Under the pieces are notes generated by a model that was given only the letters and a program-made list of their open reading frames with translations, did no database searches and was not told the origin of the DNA. Shown in pieces: positions 3,715 to 63,130 of a DNA stretch of 64,000 nt. Numbering within the stretch: the first letter of the stretch is position 1; each line of letters starts with the position of its first letter. Origin of the DNA: a virus; the IMG/VR virus record IMGVR_UViG_3300045241_000115, positions 1 to 64,000 of that record. One strand, given 5' to 3'. Made by a program: the position numbers and the translations under genes.

Positions 3715-5509
3715 TCACCTCTATCGAGTGATGTTCCGGCAGCGGTTTGGCGTTCAGCTTCCGTTTGTCGCTGAGATAGTCGAACACCTGCGGTGGCGTT
3801 TCCGGATAATCCTGCGGCACCGGCAGCTTGTTCGGCATTTCCAAAACGCGATGGCCGTACAGGTTCGGCTTGAAATAAACAGCGACGCCTGCCTCGCGCG
3901 CCTGCGCCACCAGATCGGTGATCCAGTTGAACGGCGGGCGCCATTCCGGCGTGCGCGATGATGCCGACGCGCCACCAATCACCATCCACTGAAACAGATC
4001 GAGCCGCTTGAAGCGCAGCGGTTCCAGCATGGGCTCGATCGACAGCCAGCGCACCGAAGCGTTGACGTTGGCGAACGCAGCCTCGGCGTTGTTCACTCGC
4101 GCCTGCAGATCGACCGTGGTGCCCATCCAAGTGTTGTGGGGAATGTCGAACTCAGCCATCCGCTTGGGAAACTTGGTGAGCACGAGGAAATTCCAGTTGG
4201 GCGCATTGCGGATCGAGCCCAGCACGGCATTGATCCATTCCGTCGGTACCCACCGTCCGAACCAATCGGACATCGAACCGCAGAACACGTTCCGCAGTCG
4301 ATGATCGGTATTCGCGCCCTTCGGCACGCTCATGTTGCGTGGCGTGTTGAGCTGCACCGGCTTGAACGCCGGCGCGAAACCGTGCGGAAAGGCGTGCGCC
4401 GTGTTGCCCAGCGTGGCGATATCGCGGGCATAGCAATACGGGCAATCATGCAGGCAGCCGGTGATCGGGTTCCACGACCACTTCGCCCAATCGATGCCGT
4501 CGCCCTTCTGTTCGTTGAACGTGCCGGTCGCCGGCACCTTGCGGGGATCGGTCAGGATGGCCCGCGTGTTCTCATCGAGTTCGGTCCATTCCTTGAGAGA
4601 GACGGTAGCGAACAAGGACACGGCCCGCTCCTGCGATGCGAGCGCTTGGGCCCGTTCCGCGGCGCGTTCATCCTCGATCTGTCGGATCAACGGCCGCAAC
4701 ACGCGCTCAAGCTGGACTGGCGTCGATATGTTCTTGCCATCGAGCACTACATCGACGGTGCCCTCCAGCAGCGTATCGGGATGCGCGTCGTCCAGCTCGC
4801 GCAGCAGTTCGACATAACGGCCGAACATGGCGAGCATCTCGCGCACGTCGTCCAAAGACAGCAGGCCGCGGACGACTCGCTTGCCGATGCCGTCCCAATC
4901 GAACGCCCATTTGGCCTCGGGAGCGCCTTTGAACCCACGTACCATTGCGCGCGTCTCATCACGCGACAGATCATCGCGAATGACGGTCGATACCAAGGCA
5001 GACCACAGCCACGGCTCGGCTCGGTGTATTTCCACCAGACTGGCGAAATATTCGCCGAGCTTTGTACGGCCCGCCGTACAGGCTTCCGCTACCCTGGCCG
5101 CGTTGATCTCGTCCTCAACCGCACTGGCAGACCGGCCGGCCTCGCCGGCATAGCCGCGCACCGTCTTCCCGCTCTTCAGCGCGTGCATGCCACGTTCAAG
5201 CGACGTCAGTTCGCTCTGTGCGTTGGCTAATACCAACAGCATATAGGCTTCATCGTCACTCATCTCGCGCACCCAGGTCGGCACTTTTTTGAGCTCGGAT
5301 TTGCGCGCCGCTTTCACGCGGTTGTGGCCAGATAAGATCTGGAACGCGCCGTTGAGTGGTCGCGCCATGATCGCGTGAGCCGCGTCGAACCCGTGCTCGC
5401 GGATCAATGCGGCAATCTGGTCGATCACGTCGGTCCGTTCTATCAGCCGCGGATTGCCGGGATGCGGTGTCAGCTTATCGAGCGGAATTAGCTGCGGCGT
5501 ATCACTCAT
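3707..5509 (-). CDS. ParB N-terminal domain fused to DUF5131 (Gp37/Gp68-like radical SAM)
   Basis: HPGNPR and SGHNRVKAA (ParB); WNPITGCLHDCPYCYA, VFCGSMSDWF, LTKFP, WLSIEPML, WMVIGG (DUF5131). Confidence 0.9.
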   Translation of the reverse strand: MSDTPQLIPLDKLTPHPGNPRLIERTDVIDQIAALIREHGFDAAHAIMARPLNGAFQILSGHNRVKAARKSELKKVPTWVREMSDDEAYMLLVLANAQSELTSLERGMHALKSGKTVRGYAGEAGRSASAVEDEINAARVAEACTAGRTKLGEYFASLVEIHRAEPWLWSALVSTVIRDDLSRDETRAMVRGFKGAPEAKWAFDWDGIGKRVVRGLLSLDDVREMLAMFGRYVELLRELDDAHPDTLLEGTVDVVLDGKNISTPVQLERVLRPLIRQIEDERAAERAQALASQERAVSLFATVSLKEWTELDENTRAILTDPRKVPATGTFNEQKGDGIDWAKWSWNPITGCLHDCPYCYARDIATLGNTAHAFPHGFAPAFKPVQLNTPRNMSVPKGANTDHRLRNVFCGSMSDWFGRWVPTEWINAVLGSIRNAPNWNFLVLTKFPKRMAEFDIPHNTWMGTTVDLQARVNNAEAAFANVNASVRWLSIEPMLEPLRFKRLDLFQWMVIGGASASSRTPEWRPPFNWITDLVAQAREAGVAVYFKPNLYGHRVLEMPNKLPVPQDYPETPPQVFDYLSDKRKLNAKPLPEHHSIEVSA

Positions 5510-11319: not shown

Positions 11320-11335
11320 ACAGAAAGGAACAACC

Positions 11336-58036: not shown

Positions 58037-58357
58037 ATGCCGAGGCCGCTGTTCATTCCGCTGCGCGGCGAATTCTTCGATGCCTTCGCGCGTGGCGAGA
58101 AGACCGAGGAATGGCGTCGGCATGGGCCGCGTTGGAATGACGAGGTCTGTTCGGTCGGGCGGCGTGTCGTGCTGTCACGCGGCTACTCGGGCGCGCGATT
58201 ATCGGCCCGGATCACAGCGATTGCGGTGCGTCCTGCGAGACTGCCTGAGGTGGTCGCGATCTACGGCAGGGACACGCCGTGCCTGGTTCTGACTCTTCAG
58301 GTGGCAACCACGAGACGAGCGGCGAGGTCGCGGTCTTCCATCGCCGGCCCGCAATAG
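58037..58357 (+). CDS. ASCH domain protein (antisense)
   Basis: PL..EFFDAF..GEKTEEWR..LSRGY. Confidence 0.75.
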   Translation: MPRPLFIPLRGEFFDAFARGEKTEEWRRHGPRWNDEVCSVGRRVVLSRGYSGARLSARITAIAVRPARLPEVVAIYGRDTPCLVLTLQVATTRRAARSRSSIAGPQ

Positions 58358-59457
58358 GCGAACACGGCGTTGGGCCGTCCACCGAAGCCGCCGGCCATGT
58401 CGGGCGCCGATGAGATGTTGACGTTGCGACGGCTCGGACGCCCTGGCGGCGAGACGAGGTCCCAGACCGGCGAACGATCGAAGGATCGGATCAGCATGGG
58501 GTGCGCCGGATAGGCGTGATAGCGACGAGCCGCGGCGCGATAGGCCGAGGCGACGCGGTCGGCGAGCACGAAGGCGAGGCCGAGGCCCTGGAAGTCGGGC
58601 AGTGTGACCAGCCGGCTCATGCCGTAGATGTTCTTGCTCTTGGCGTGCGGGCGATAAACGACGGCTGCGAAGGCGGCCGGAATGCCGCTGACCGACAGGC
58701 GATAGCACCGGGAGGCTGGCGGAAGGTCGGCGGTCAGATAGTGAAAGCGAGCGAAGGCGCTCCAGGCACGATGGTCGACGCGATGGATTTCGCAGTCGAG
58801 GGGTGGTCGTCGTTGAAGAGACCTCCAGCGGAAGTCCATGGTGGCCGGGTCGAATATCCAGTCCGGCTGCAACCAGTCTTCCAGATCGTAATGGCAGGTG
58901 GCGGCGACGAAGCGGCGTGAGGCGTCGCGGCGGATGAACTTCTGCACGGCATGGGCGCCGATCTTGGCCACCTGGCGATCAACCACCGAGGTGAACTCGT
59001 CGCAGACCACGGCGGGTTTCCCATCGAACGCGTTCGATGGGGTCCCGTGATCATCGCCTTCGAGCAGGCGGCGCGCGAGATCGACGCGGAAGCGCTCCCC
59101 ATTGCTCAGGACGGCGTACGGGCGCAGCCACGCCGGGATGGTGTTGAAACCGACCGCTTGGCAGATGCGGGCGACGGTCTCGACGCTGTGGCGGCGGTCG
59201 AAGTCATCAATCACCGAGGCGCCCGGCCATTCGAAGGACAAGGGCGCGCCGAAGATGCGGTTGAGAATGGTGGTCTTGCCTGAGCCTGAGGGCCCGACGA
59301 TCAAGCCGATCTGCCAGGGCTGCTGTTCGATCGGCAATTGGCCGTGCCAGTTCAGCGTGGCGCGCTCGGTCGGTGGCACGTCGAACATCGATGAGACTTG
59401 CGCGGCCCGCGCCGAGTTGGAGATCGGCGAGGTAACGGTGATATCGATCTCGGGCAT
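58297..59457 (-). CDS. ABC-type ATPase fused to a GNAT acetyltransferase
   Basis: GPSGSGKTT, LSNGERFR, CDEFTSVVDR; HYL and SRLVTLPDFQGLG. Confidence 0.85.
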   Translation of the reverse strand: MPEIDITVTSPISNSARAAQVSSMFDVPPTERATLNWHGQLPIEQQPWQIGLIVGPSGSGKTTILNRIFGAPLSFEWPGASVIDDFDRRHSVETVARICQAVGFNTIPAWLRPYAVLSNGERFRVDLARRLLEGDDHGTPSNAFDGKPAVVCDEFTSVVDRQVAKIGAHAVQKFIRRDASRRFVAATCHYDLEDWLQPDWIFDPATMDFRWRSLQRRPPLDCEIHRVDHRAWSAFARFHYLTADLPPASRCYRLSVSGIPAAFAAVVYRPHAKSKNIYGMSRLVTLPDFQGLGLAFVLADRVASAYRAAARRYHAYPAHPMLIRSFDRSPVWDLVSPPGRPSRRNVNISSAPDMAGGFGGRPNAVFAYCGPAMEDRDLAARLVVAT

Positions 59458-60059
59458 CAGGTGATCAGGGGCTTGGCGGTCAGGCCGAGGGCGCGGATGC
59501 GATCGATGGCGTCGGCCTGGGCGGCCTCGTCGGCGCATTCGACGAGGACTTGGTATTGCAGTCCGTCATGGAGGCGACGTGTCACGGGGGTTCCTTCGCC
59601 GAGGATGGTGGAGATGTCGGGCATGTTGAAGCCGGTCAGCGACAGATCGAAGCCGGCGACGCGGAGGTCGCCGAACTCGCCGCGCAGCAGATCGATGTCC
59701 CAGCCGGCCTCGAGGGCGAGCTTGTTGTCGGCGATGACGTAGGCGCGGCGCTCGGGCTGGCTGAGATGTGAGAGATCGATGGTGGGGCCTGTCCAGGGAT
59801 CGGCGTTGCGCGGGATGGGTTGATTTGCCTCGGCCATCTCGATGGCGGCGGCGAGGCGCGCATGGCCGGCAATCAGGCCGGACTCGGCGATGAGCATGGG
59901 GTTCGTCCAGCCGAAGCGGGCGAGCGAGGCGCGGATTTTAGCGAGCTGGGATTTCGTGTGGGTGCGTGAGTTGCGCGCATAGGGTTCGAGGTCGCGCAGC
60001 GGCCGGTATGTCACCGATAACTGTGTCGCCTGCCGATCGTTACCATTGTGGCGTGGCAT
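59457..60059 (-). CDS. ParB/Srx N-terminal domain protein
   Basis: PYARNSRTH, FGWTNP, IAGHARL.AA, AYVIADNKLA. Confidence 0.85.
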   Translation of the reverse strand: MPRHNGNDRQATQLSVTYRPLRDLEPYARNSRTHTKSQLAKIRASLARFGWTNPMLIAESGLIAGHARLAAAIEMAEANQPIPRNADPWTGPTIDLSHLSQPERRAYVIADNKLALEAGWDIDLLRGEFGDLRVAGFDLSLTGFNMPDISTILGEGTPVTRRLHDGLQYQVLVECADEAAQADAIDRIRALGLTAKPLIT

Positions 60060-60702
60060 GCGGTGGCCTCATGGCGTGAGGATGCGACAAAAGACTGTTT
60101 CGCTAGTTGAAACAGTTGCGACAATAACTGGCCGAATATTGCTGCGGGTGCCGTCTGATCGTGTCGGAAGCCATTGATCTGACAAGGAAATAATACAGAT
60201 TGTTCCGTTGCGGCAATCTGCGACTATCGCATTGCTATCGATGATCTTTGACAAATGAATACGGATCGCACGCCGCCCCACACGGGGCGCGGGGGTCGCT
60301 CGGGGGCCAAGCGCACGTTGCGCGGGGTCGAACCCATCCACGAGCCGCTTACGCGATGTGCACGTCTACCGCGATCCGATGATCTGTTCCTGATCATTTC
60401 CCGTCTTTGACAAATAAATCCGCCACCCTGAGCACGAAACGACATCCGTGGTCGCGCAGCCTATCGGCGCAATCGGATGCACGTCATGCGAGGGGAGCGG
60501 GTTTCATAGGCAACCCAATTCACCGCATTCCCGCGCTTCGGCGCTGCCTGTAAGGCGATGCGGGGTGATGTTCGTGGATGTTTAGTTGCATCTCGGTGCA
60601 ACCCTCTGCCCGTGGCTATCGGGGTGAGGGCGGTTACCTGCCTGCAAGGCGTGCGACGAAAGCTGACGCGAACAGCACCGGAGTGGTTTGGTGTGTTCTT
60701 TT

Positions 60703-60812
60703 CTTTCTGTTGATTGGCATCGTGTGAAGGCTACGGCCTTTGCGCGATGCCGGTCCGGGATGTGAGCCATCCCGCTGAACGAGGCCATGAGGCCGAAACC
60801 CAACAGAAAGGA
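60703..60812 (+). ncRNA. Type III hammerhead ribozyme (variant core CUGAACGA)
   Basis: GUC at 60753-55; stem I CGGGAUG/CAUCCCG; stem II GGCC/GGCC; GAAA; stem III extended by 60703-12 pairing with 60801-10. Confidence 0.75.
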
Positions 60813-60819
60813 ACATCAT

Positions 60820-61083
60820 ATGACAATGGATCAATTTGTTCTCGGCGCGCGCGTGCGTCTCGTTCGCCGCGCCGGCGGAAACTACCCGGGTGCGAGTTTC
60901 TGCATCGAACCCGGCCCGATCGGCACGGTGATCAAATCGCCCGAGGATTTCTGCGTGGACGAGTTCGCCCCGAATGTCGGGGTGCGGTTTGATGACCGCG
61001 TTGCCGATCTCGATATGTGGGACAACATCGTGATCGTGGGCGACGACTTCGACGCCACGGCCGATCATTTCGAGACACTCTGA
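60820..61083 (+). CDS. Hypothetical early protein
   Basis: AGAAAGGAAC RBS; lies between ribozymes. Confidence 0.7.
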   Translation: MTMDQFVLGARVRLVRRAGGNYPGASFCIEPGPIGTVIKSPEDFCVDEFAPNVGVRFDDRVADLDMWDNIVIVGDDFDATADHFETL

Positions 61084-61152
61084 GACGAAACACGGCGCGT
61101 TGCGTCGTGTCCGTCGGCGCCTGCCCCTCCCGACGCTGATGAGTCAGGGGCA
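61084..61152 (+). ncRNA. Type II hammerhead ribozyme with pseudoknot
   Basis: GAC-GAAA-stem III-GUC(61111)-CGUCGG/CCGACG-CUGAUGA-GUC; loop UGCCCCU pairs with AGGGGCA. Confidence 0.92.
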
Positions 61153-61171
61153 AACAGAAAGGAACAACCCT

Positions 61172-61342
61172 ATGCGCAAGCAAATCGAGACGATGAAGAC
61201 GAAGCTGCAGACGATGCTCGCCCGCGCCGAAGAGAAGGCCGACAGCGAGAACGAGACGGTCGGCGACAAGTACGCCGCCGTCATGGACGGTCTGCAAACC
61301 GCGCTCGACGGCCTGGACGAAGCGTTGCTCGCATTTGAATGA
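61172..61342 (+). CDS. Small acidic helical early protein
   Basis: Conserved RBS; stop codon overlaps the next ribozyme. Confidence 0.7.
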   Translation: MRKQIETMKTKLQTMLARAEEKADSENETVGDKYAAVMDGLQTALDGLDEALLAFE

Positions 61343-61415
61343 CGAAACGCGCGGTGGATGAGACATCGCGCGTCTGCATGGAACCCCGCCCATCCTGCAC
61401 TGATGAGTCAGGGCG
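61340..61415 (+). ncRNA. Type II hammerhead ribozyme with pseudoknot
   Basis: UGAC-GAAA-CGCGCGGUG/CAUCGCGCG-UC(61374)-UGCA..UGCA-CUGAUGA-GUCA; CGCCC pairs with GGGCG. Confidence 0.92.
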
Positions 61416-61434
61416 AACAGAAAGGAACATCACA

Positions 61435-61737
61435 ATGCCAAAGACCACAATCATGCTCAAGGCCGACGTTGCGCAGCGCAAGGCGCGTCATACGTGCCCC
61501 CAGTACGATCAATTCAAGAAGCCATCGCGCAAGGCGTCCAGAGCGAAGATTGATCCGACGACAACCGCCGAGGCGGATCAGGCGATCTACGAGGCCGCAC
61601 TGAGTCAGGTACGCGAGGCGATGCGCCGCTTCGCCGGCCCGCATGCGTCCAAACGCCAGCTCAAAGAGATCGACGCGGCGCTGAGCGAGGCATTCGGGCA
61701 ACTCGACGCCATCGCGTACGATCTTGTTTGCATGTGA
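61435..61737 (+). CDS. Hypothetical early protein
   Basis: Conserved RBS; stop codon overlaps the next ribozyme. Confidence 0.7.
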   Translation: MPKTTIMLKADVAQRKARHTCPQYDQFKKPSRKASRAKIDPTTTAEADQAIYEAALSQVREAMRRFAGPHASKRQLKEIDAALSEAFGQLDAIAYDLVCM

Positions 61738-61806
61738 CGAAACGCGGCGCGCGCAGCGCTGCGTCTGCACGGACCTGCCCCACCCTGCACTGATGAGTCA
61801 GGGGCA
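61735..61806 (+). ncRNA. Type II hammerhead ribozyme with pseudoknot
   Basis: UGAC-GAAA-CGCGGCGC/GCGCUGCG-UC(61765)-UGCA..UGCA-CUGAUGA-GUCA; UGCCCC pairs with GGGGCA. Confidence 0.92.
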
Positions 61807-61823
61807 ACAGAAAGGAACAACCC

Positions 61824-62018: not shown

Positions 62019-62542
62019 GCGACAGCACTTCCCAGCTTGTCGCTGTTCTCGGCATGTTGGGATCGCAGTTCGACGGCGAGTGCCTGAACGCGGCCCGGAT
62101 GGCCGAGAAAATGCGACGCAAGATGGACAAGACGTGGCAGCAATTGCTGACCGCCGGCGCGTCGTCTCCCAAGGACGAGCTCGGCTGGCTCGCACGCGCG
62201 TTGCGTGCCGAGAAAATGGTCAGCGATCTGACGGCGCGTATCGGCAAAATGGAGGCCGAACTTGCCGAATTGCGCAAGGCTCGTCCGAGCGCGTCCGCGT
62301 CCTCGACCGGCCCACGTCCTCGCAGTCCCGGCTACAAGTACTCACTCAGCGCCGAGACCGAGCAGATCTTGATCGACAAGATGTTGCTGATCGAACGATC
62401 GACCAACGAGATCTATTACATCACCAAATGGCCGCGCGCGCATTTGCGCGTCGTCCTCGAGCGCATCGCCCATCGCCGCAAACTCGAGCTTCATGTGCGG
62501 CGACGGTTCGGCAGCACGTTCTATCGTTTCACGCGTGTCTAA
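62015..62542 (+). CDS. Hypothetical protein
   Basis: LGMLGSQFDGE..NAAR motif; coiled coil. Confidence 0.7.
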   Translation: MSDSTSQLVAVLGMLGSQFDGECLNAARMAEKMRRKMDKTWQQLLTAGASSPKDELGWLARALRAEKMVSDLTARIGKMEAELAELRKARPSASASSTGPRPRSPGYKYSLSAETEQILIDKMLLIERSTNEIYYITKWPRAHLRVVLERIAHRRKLELHVRRRFGSTFYRFTRV

Positions 62543-62588
62543 CCCGTACGGATGCAGCATCGTTCGATGCTGTATTCGCCTGGGTTAG
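62539..62588 (+). other. Conserved intergenic hairpin, copy 1
   Basis: CUAACCC-GUAC-GGAUGCAGCAUC-loop-GAUGCUGUAUUC-GCCU-GGGUUAG. Confidence 0.65.
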
Positions 62589-62653
62589 CGGGGACTCATT
62601 CCGAGTCCCGCCCAGGCATCGCAATCATGCGATGGATACAGAAAGGAACATCC

Positions 62654-62998
62654 ATGCCTACCATGAAGACGACATCTGAGCCCCGCGGTCAGACGGCCAT
62701 CATCTGCAAGGTGCTGCAGCACAAGGACGGTTATACCGCCCAAGAGCTGCTCGCCGAGACGGGTGGCACGACGCCGCACAACTCCTATTCGCTCCAGCTC
62801 ATCGCCGATCGCTTCGGCTATGACTTCGTGTCCCACAAGGGCAGCGAGTACGAGGACGGGCTGATGCGGTATCGCTTCGTCCGCAAGGCGGCCCGCAAGG
62901 CCGTGAGCACCCGTCGCGCCGGCAAGGCGAAGGCGGTTAAGGCGGCGGCCGCGTCGACCAAGCGGCCTGCGAAGAAGACCGCGAAGTCCAGGGCGTAA
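62654..62998 (+). CDS. DUF3489-like winged-helix protein with Lys/Ala-rich tail
   Basis: AIICKVLQHKDGYTAQELL..RYRF; histone-H1-like tail. Confidence 0.6.
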   Translation: MPTMKTTSEPRGQTAIICKVLQHKDGYTAQELLAETGGTTPHNSYSLQLIADRFGYDFVSHKGSEYEDGLMRYRFVRKAARKAVSTRRAGKAKAVKAAAASTKRPAKKTAKSRA

Positions 62999-63046: not shown

Positions 63047-63096
63047 CTGACCCGTACGGATGCAGCATCAAACGATGCTGCATTCGCCTGGGCCAG
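63047..63096 (+). other. Conserved intergenic hairpin, copy 2
   Basis: CUGACCC-GUAC-GGAUGCAGCAUC-loop-GAUGCUGCAUUC-GCCU-GGGCCAG. Confidence 0.65.
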
Positions 63097-63130
63097 TGAT
63101 GGTACAGGGCTAAACAGAAGGGAACACCGA

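Follow-up and report, generated by a model that had tools for sequence, protein, structure and literature searches.

RNase III cuts the early leaders of phages (the λ N leader, the T7 early mRNAs), which yields gene-sized mRNAs and possibly relieves occlusion of the ribosome-binding site (RBS). Clustered hammerhead ribozymes flank single genes in prophages of Agrobacterium, Azorhizobium and Clostridium scindens (PMC3088659); the terms 'Shine-Dalgarno' and 'ribosome binding' have 0 occurrences in that paper. In engineered hammerhead and twister switches, the Shine–Dalgarno (SD) sequence is hidden in a ribozyme stem (Felletti et al. 2016, PMC5052635), and in Escherichia coli reporter output is 5- to 100-fold higher with active than with inactive versions of these SD-in-stem ribozymes (PMC5052635). 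A 2019 review left open what ribozymes do in bacteria and phages, and our full-text searches for a published natural anti-RBS clamp across a ribozyme returned engineered systems only. Here, we describe a putative clamp of this kind, which encloses a type III hammerhead at the head of an early operon in the phage record IMGVR_UViG_3300045241_000115. The stretch analysed (the window) comprises bases 1–64000 of this 73,959-bp IMG/VR virus record, rated complete by CheckV; the phage DNA was found in one soil-metagenome sequencing run, probably the source sample, and no RNA run was listed for this phage.

We propose, with a probability of about 0.45, that the hammerhead lies in the leader of the early operon and is clamped by a helix between an upstream 'anti-box' and the RBS of the first gene, such that cleavage would permit, rather than itself trigger, translation. 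This proposal builds on the fold, its covariation and a conserved layout, from which we infer that the ribozyme cleaves and that the RBS is occluded in vivo and then released.

A predicted helix between the leader and the first RBS

From 60.7 kb onwards, the + strand of the window carries short genes, each with the box ACAGAA(A/G)GGAAC ahead of it. The first array gene (60820–61083, +; start codon at 60820, 87 aa) was taken from the open reading frame (ORF) list. Upstream of its start codon is the strand CAACAGAAAGGAA (60801–60813, +), which contains the SD sequence AAGGA (60808–60812), and further upstream is the anti-box UGGUGUGUUCUUUUCUUUCUGUUG (60689–60712, +), of which positions 60700–60712 pair with this first RBS box in both the minimum free energy (MFE) structure and the ensemble. 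An earlier note on this DNA had described a perfect 10-bp helix covering part of the RBS. The complementarity is indeed exact (CUUUCUGUUG, 60703–60712, with CAACAGAAAG, 60801–60810), and the helix does overlap the RBS; its length, however, is 13 bp (60700–60712 with 60801–60813, the three extra pairs being one U-G and two U-A), so that the whole AAGGA, rather than part of the RBS, is covered.

The central pairs of this helix have a probability of 0.9–0.99 when the entire leader of ~435 nt is folded, and the MFE structure lengthens the helix to ~21 bp with internal loops. The duplex is predicted at −19.9 kcal/mol (energies throughout are nearest-neighbour predictions), compared with −10.5±2.9 kcal/mol for composition-preserving shuffles (p=0.006). 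The 10-mer at 60703–60712 is the sole + strand copy in the 64 kb, while the copies on the − strand are all RBS boxes. The SD sequence lies on one strand of a closing helix directly beside stem III of the hammerhead.

The layout recurs in related phages

Relatives were reached via the products of two upstream genes on the opposite strand, one an ABC-ATPase/GNAT fusion and the other the large terminase, giving a comparison set of ten related uncultured phage records including the window, comparisons among which are not independent. The order anti-box, cleaving or other structured element, first RBS box was found in 10/10 records. In each relative, all array genes share a near-identical RBS box particular to that phage (AACAGAGGACACC in L016 and L018, UUGAACAAAGGACC in L019, ACAGAGGA(A/G)CAC in L020 and UCAGAGGACACC in L117) together with one upstream pyrimidine-rich anti-box per phage, which starts (U/A)GGUGU and is the reverse complement of the box of the same phage, with short dinucleotide expansions. 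Changes in the box are mirrored in the anti-box: ACAG is matched by CUGU, UCAG by CUGA and, in the single record L117, ACACCU is paired with AGGUGU. Compensatory pairing is seen between ACAGAAAGGAAC and GUUCUUU..CUUUCUGU (window and L037), ACAGAGGACACC and GGUGU..CCUC..CUCUGU (L016, L018 and L053), UCAGAGG and CCUCUGA (L117 and L022), and GAACAAAGGAC and GUCCUUU..UGUUC (L019). In the MFE structures of 10/10 leaders, the anti-box and the first RBS box are paired and enclose 100–170 nt. Every phage duplex is stronger than its composition-preserving shuffles (p from 0 to 0.08), and the duplex energy summed over eight phages amounts to −148 kcal/mol, against −87±9 kcal/mol for the shuffles.

The slot enclosed by this helix is occupied by elements of differing class. 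A type III hammerhead is present in the window, L016, L018 and L053; L020 has a twister-P5 match (37.3 bits, threshold 37.6) and L118 a twister-P1-like element (32 bits, E value 5e-4). L037, the closest relative by terminase (83 % identity), carries in its slot (L037:120–192, −) a homologue of two hairpins found further downstream in the window (62541 and 63050), making this hairpin a candidate functional equivalent of a self-cleaving ribozyme as judged from its position, and marking its family as a candidate new processing element. In L022 and L117, the element in the slot matched no Rfam family; that of L019 appeared twister-like by eye, which cmscan did not confirm. Among the ten slot elements, cut positions were assigned for the four hammerheads. 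That the class of element varies while the layout is kept is as expected if cleavage between the two strands matters.

Related phages also mix ribozyme classes within one early operon, L020 presenting a series of matches to twister-P5, hammerhead III, hammerhead II and twister-P1 ((−) 4810–4880, 2555–2614, 1950–2002 and 1190–1249); mixing also extends to L019 (2297–2364, −).

Hammerhead fold and homologues

A descriptor scan, Rfam Hammerhead_3 and our own covariance model R1 all place the type III hammerhead at 60752–60800 (+). The sequence check and descriptor scan bore out the hammerhead parts and the insert hairpin at the coordinates given in the earlier note, as well as a core that is one nucleotide longer than CUGANGA. 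Stem III is 3 bp (GGU/ACC; G60752-C60800, G60753-C60799 and U60754-A60798) and is open, whereas stems I and II are closed by loops: stem I is 7 bp (CGGGAUG/CAUCCCG, 60756–60762 with 60768–60774, loop UGAGC) and stem II is 4 bp (GGCC/GGCC, 60783–60786 with 60791–60794, loop AUGA). The cut-site base is C60755, within the GUC triplet G60753-U60754-C60755; U60754 pairs with A60798, providing the A15.1-U16.1 pair next to an NUH triplet, and GAAA is present between stems II and III (60795–60798). The core is CUGAACGA (60775–60782, 8 nt). The two loops display no evident complementarity by eye, and loop sequences differ among the six homologues. Between the anti-box and the ribozyme lies an insert hairpin of 16 bp with a C(UACG)G tetraloop (60716–60751, +); at this position, L018, L016 and L053 have unrelated hairpins of other sizes. 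The 136-nt stretch as a whole folds at −65.8 kcal/mol (z=−7.3), and 0/200 shuffles fold equally well.

Five further type III hammerheads were available for comparison: L016 (core CUGAUGA), L018:4688–4735 (−) (CCGAUGA), L020 (CUGAAGA), L051:483–529 (−) (CCGAUGA) and L053 (CUGAAUGA, 8 nt). The pattern CUGAANGA describes type III hammerheads of this core type. Model R1 was built from L016 and L018 only, and its top matches are all six hammerheads, the window scoring 22.4 bits (E value 8e-4 in 122 kb); R1 matches scoring below the window (L076, L082 and others) look like chance. As a MAFFT alignment of the six was structurally wrong, a model-based alignment was used instead, in which 78/78 cells hold standard pairs and 8/13 pairs show changes on both sides. 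In the control, 0/500 shuffles matched this result and no slid register came near it. With all cells paired and compensatory changes present, the hammerhead fold is under selection, and fold and covariation together identify the element as a true type III hammerhead.

In L020, an identical stem II (GGCC..GGCC) accompanies the canonical core CUGAAGA, and the window core is therefore best read as a one-base insertion (CUGA-AC-GA). L053 has the 8-nt core type of the window on entirely different stems. The CCGAUGA of L018 and L051 is an apparent U4C core change with all stems intact; U4 is normally invariant in the hammerhead core. Non-canonical cores occur in 3/4 first-slot and 1/6 internal hammerheads, a difference that is not significant (rough Fisher p of about 0.2).

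Leader and promoter-like motif

A promoter-like motif, TTGACA-AA-TAAATC (60407–60420, +), marks the putative start region of the leader transcript. In 8/8 records examined (window, L016, L018, L019, L020, L022, L037 and L053), a motif of the form TTGACA, 2–4 nt, T(G/A)AAT(C) lies 20–400 nt 5′ of the anti-box, and in L018 and L053 it is just ~20 nt ahead of it. The two halves are far too close for a sigma-70 −35/−10 pair, and a sigma-70 consensus scan did not find a classical promoter. The conserved position of the motif suggests that the anti-box is transcribed. Between motif and anti-box, the window has a structured untranslated leader (60430–60688, +), for which folding of 60425–60860 gives many nested helices (MFE −197 kcal/mol) and in which no start codon or ORF fitting the box spacing was found on either strand. 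Leader length among the relatives ranges from 0 to about 400 nt.

Predicted effect of cleavage and alternative explanations

On the most economical reading, one 13-bp helix closes the 3-bp stem III and hides the SD sequence at once. With a cut after 60755, the 5′ product would retain the anti-box and the 3′ product the RBS; self-cleavage after C60755 would therefore sever the covalent link between the two and give the mRNA a 5′-hydroxyl hairpin end. A one-molecule lock would in this way become a two-molecule duplex of about −14 kcal/mol, and this residual duplex would still have to be cleared through decay of the leader, by a helicase or by an invading ribosome. Cleavage would accordingly act as a necessary permitting step for translation at the operon head and not as the release itself. 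Scored over the SD region AGAAAGGAAC, the mean unpaired probability in the window is 0.05 for the full-length RNA and 0.64 for the free 3′ product; across the phages, the corresponding values are 0.05–0.25 and, for the isolated 3′ product, 0.56–0.73.

Several observations count against this reading. The predicted binding of the two products is strong (−14.4 kcal/mol in the window, −14.9 in L016, −16.0 in L018 and −15.8 in L053); the products are thus predicted to stay paired, so that cleavage alone would not free the RBS. By our own estimate, the product duplex would have a dissociation constant in the picomolar range and would dissociate over hours, such that the strands would part only slowly on their own and, at cellular concentrations, not completely. 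Here the earlier note, which had proposed a natural RBS-releasing switch, needs amending: its structural premise stands, given the covariation and the helix in ten records, while release by cleavage alone is at odds with products predicted to remain bound. The core departs from CUGANGA by its extra base, although the remaining core bases are all present, and the Rfam Hammerhead_3 score is only 24.1 bits (E value 0.078 in 4.5 kb) against a gathering score of 48.5; at gathering level, Rfam gave no match in the whole window. Homologues likewise fall below this gathering score (L020 42.5 bits, L016 29.8 bits). The sequence GAUU (60712–60715, +) can pair with GGUC (60752–60755), extending the insert hairpin, and in the nearest-neighbour model, which takes no account of hammerhead tertiary energy, this pairing beats stem III by 2.4 kcal/mol. 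In the ensemble, it has a probability of 0.84–0.94 (outermost pair 0.38) compared with 0.006 for stem III; the same pairing is predicted in L016, and it is plausibly an inhibitory alternative to stem III. That the RNA includes the anti-box is itself presumed; in the window and L022, the 5′ segment of the anti-box (GGUGUGU) is a closer match to the consensus box than to the flank of the first gene; and the ten records compared are, as stated, not independent.

The gene behind the clamp is also not conserved between phages, which weakens the case for gene-specific regulation. The first gene of L016 (4414–4677, −) is homologous to gene 3 of the window (61435–61737; E value 2e-14), and that of L018 (4363–4671, −) to gene 6 (62654–62998; E value 3e-34). 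Given this, any control would act on the operon head and not on one particular protein. The shuffled order of the array genes fits cassette-like exchange at the joints between ribozymes and RBS boxes.

A published precedent bears on the extra core base, and on this count too it tells against efficient cleavage. According to a figure legend, a natural hammerhead in which a base is inserted after A6 ('A6a'; Perreault et al. 2011) has low activity in vitro, ascribed to a lost contact of the A6-N7 phosphate with U4 (PMC3088659). Like that variant, the window element is a hammerhead that is intact but for one additional nucleotide around A6/N7, which in the window can be read either as an A after A6 or as a C after N7. 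The two differ in that the core type described here recurs in two diverged phages (window and L053), in an operon leader. The extra base is thus a known kind of variant that, by analogy, is expected to slow cleavage without abolishing it, and together with the GAUU/GGUC competitor it probably makes cleavage slow. The suggestion of the earlier note that the insertion might turn the ribozyme into a timer is plausible; the A6a precedent fits it, without proving it. A core type measured as slow and found in two phages at the same position hints that slow cleavage may be selected there.

It is also conceivable, although we consider it rather unlikely, that the helix is no more than a folding aid, closing or insulating a self-cleaver at the operon head that leaves a defined 5′-OH end. 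The RBS would then have been used as the sole non-coding sequence 3′ of the ribozyme, its hiding would be a side effect and translation of the first gene would not be meaningfully gated. Stem III is 3–4 bp in the first-slot hammerheads and 5 bp in internal ones (L020 and L051), so that the former would depend on closure by a helix from outside; in 10/10 leaders, the entire domain is enclosed by the helix; and both the lack of conservation of the first gene and the predicted pairing of the products after cleavage would be expected. However, in L020, the first RBS box lies ~100 nt past the twister, and the helix is consequently no direct extension of the ribozyme's closing stem there. Internal ribozymes, moreover, fold without such a clamp, and a permanent block of −14 kcal/mol on the first RBS would be costly unless resolved.

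An improbable alternative is that the leader acts in trans, the freed anti-box RNA being a built-in antisense regulator of the ~15 identical RBS boxes of the operon. Such a role would account for the presence of one anti-box and many near-identical boxes per genome (14 forward copies here) and for the retention of the full 12–13-nt box at every gene, which is more than an SD sequence needs. The anti-box also tracks the consensus box of each phage, with the better fit to the consensus in the window and L022 already described. Nevertheless, leader and first mRNA would be made 1:1 and are predicted to be still paired, and a single leader would have to serve ~15 boxes, an unfavourable ratio. Cross-phage duplex energies, tried as a specificity test, did not separate own from foreign boxes. 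A broader proposal, which we regard as decidedly doubtful, would combine this role with the permitting step: a ribozyme-class-independent module in soil phages, in which one anti-RBS leader strand is retained, the slot is filled by a hammerhead, a twister or the hairpin family, and cleavage both permits translation at the operon head and frees the leader to act in trans. If true, the module would constitute a ribozyme-made global anti-RBS regulator of every early RBS, and the hairpin family would by implication represent a new class of self-cleaving or processing RNA.

There is little probability, in our estimation, that the ribozyme has decayed, with the core insertion preventing cleavage and the helix acting on its own, either to brake translation constitutively or as a ~21-bp RNase III site. 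The 8-nt core, the score under the Rfam threshold, the competing pairing of the cut-site strand, the low activity given in the legend for the A6a insertion (PMC3088659) and the ~21-bp MFE helix with its internal loops would all suit a decayed element. On the other hand, 14/14 stem pairs are intact and covary with the homologues, the same core type persists in L053 on different stems, and the slot is always structured, 6/10 of its occupants being recognisable self-cleavers.

Finally, we consider it very improbable that the complementarity is incidental and the pyrimidine tract a terminator tail, a promoter element or an opposite-strand RBS: a weak terminator-like hairpin (60675–60694) is followed by the U-rich tract, TTGACA lies ~20 nt upstream of the anti-box in L018 and L053, and L016 has an ATG after the box on the opposite strand, but the C-rich anti-boxes of the relatives would be poor terminator tails and a hairpin directly upstream is not consistent among them, opposite-strand ORFs are absent or only 11–14 codons long and not conserved, the anti-box covaries with the RBS box of each phage, and the U-G pair of the helix fits + strand RNA only.

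The early operon beyond the first RBS

Each array box has structured RNA 5′ of it, the clamped type III hammerhead being the first in the series. The RBS box ACAGAAAGGAAC stands ahead of six array genes in the window and has 14 forward-strand copies in the genome. Two exact copies lie outside the early array, at window positions 11320–11331 (+) and genome positions 71246–71257 (−). The protein of the first array gene matched no Pfam family in a Pfam scan, and no relatives of it were found in viral contigs. Its stop codon overlaps into the next element, a type II hammerhead.

Three type II hammerheads with canonical CUGAUGA cores (61084–61153, 61340–61417 and 61735–61807) start at, or shortly past, the preceding stop codon, and pairing is possible between their 3′ tail AGGG(G)C and GCCCCU of loop I. 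Two of them score 25.0 and 27.6 bits against an Rfam gathering score of 37, and the third is a pattern match only. The two spacers after the hammerheads are filled by the hairpin family (62541–62600 and 63048–63100), with the motif order CUAACCCG..GCAGCAUC..GAUGCUG..CCUGGG, for which no Rfam model matched at E≤10.

Upstream of the array and divergent to it lies a gene (58300–59538, −) whose product joins a P-loop ABC-type ATPase to a GNAT acetyltransferase region (weak Pfam matches). This fusion is kept at 49–72 % identity in 21 loci from viruses and metagenomes, and its gene is located upstream of the one for the large terminase. A search with the fusion protein yielded no prophage relative in genome contigs; in metagenome contigs it yielded ten loci, 0/10 of which had a recognisable anti-box or array in the sequence covered. 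BLASTn analysis of 60400–61500 against 50,697 phage records returned no match, and the pattern of a type II 3′ end plus RBS box had 0 matches in viral contigs. The 16-mer CACTGATGAGTCAGGG matched only unrelated phages with type II arrays (L009–L015).

Comparison with known systems

The ribozyme itself adds to a known class, and core variants of its kind have been described before. It shares with the type III hammerhead family (RF00008) the three-way junction, the open stem III, the GUC and GAAA elements and the closed stems I and II; it differs in that the 3-bp stem III continues, past a hairpin junction, into a 13-bp helix with the RBS. Like the hammerhead clusters of prophages (PMC3088659), the array comprises several ribozymes that would cut a long phage transcript into gene-sized pieces, whereas here a dedicated anti-RBS strand clamps the first ribozyme and relatives swap the class of ribozyme in the slot. 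Whereas a host protein makes the cut in RNase III processing of early leaders, here the RNA itself would cut.

The closest resemblance in design is to the engineered SD switches, in which the SD/anti-SD pairing likewise forms the closing helix of the ribozyme and the cut falls between the two strands. The locus described here is natural and lacks an aptamer, and its helix is 13 bp (about −14 kcal/mol after cleavage) and set off from stem III by a hairpin; the long helix and inserted hairpin make spontaneous strand release doubtful. That the clamp is kept while the ribozyme class changes offers a concrete hypothesis for a role of phage ribozymes, namely that cleavage permits translation, and a clamp acting in this manner would be the natural counterpart of synthetic-biology designs that were built without a natural model.

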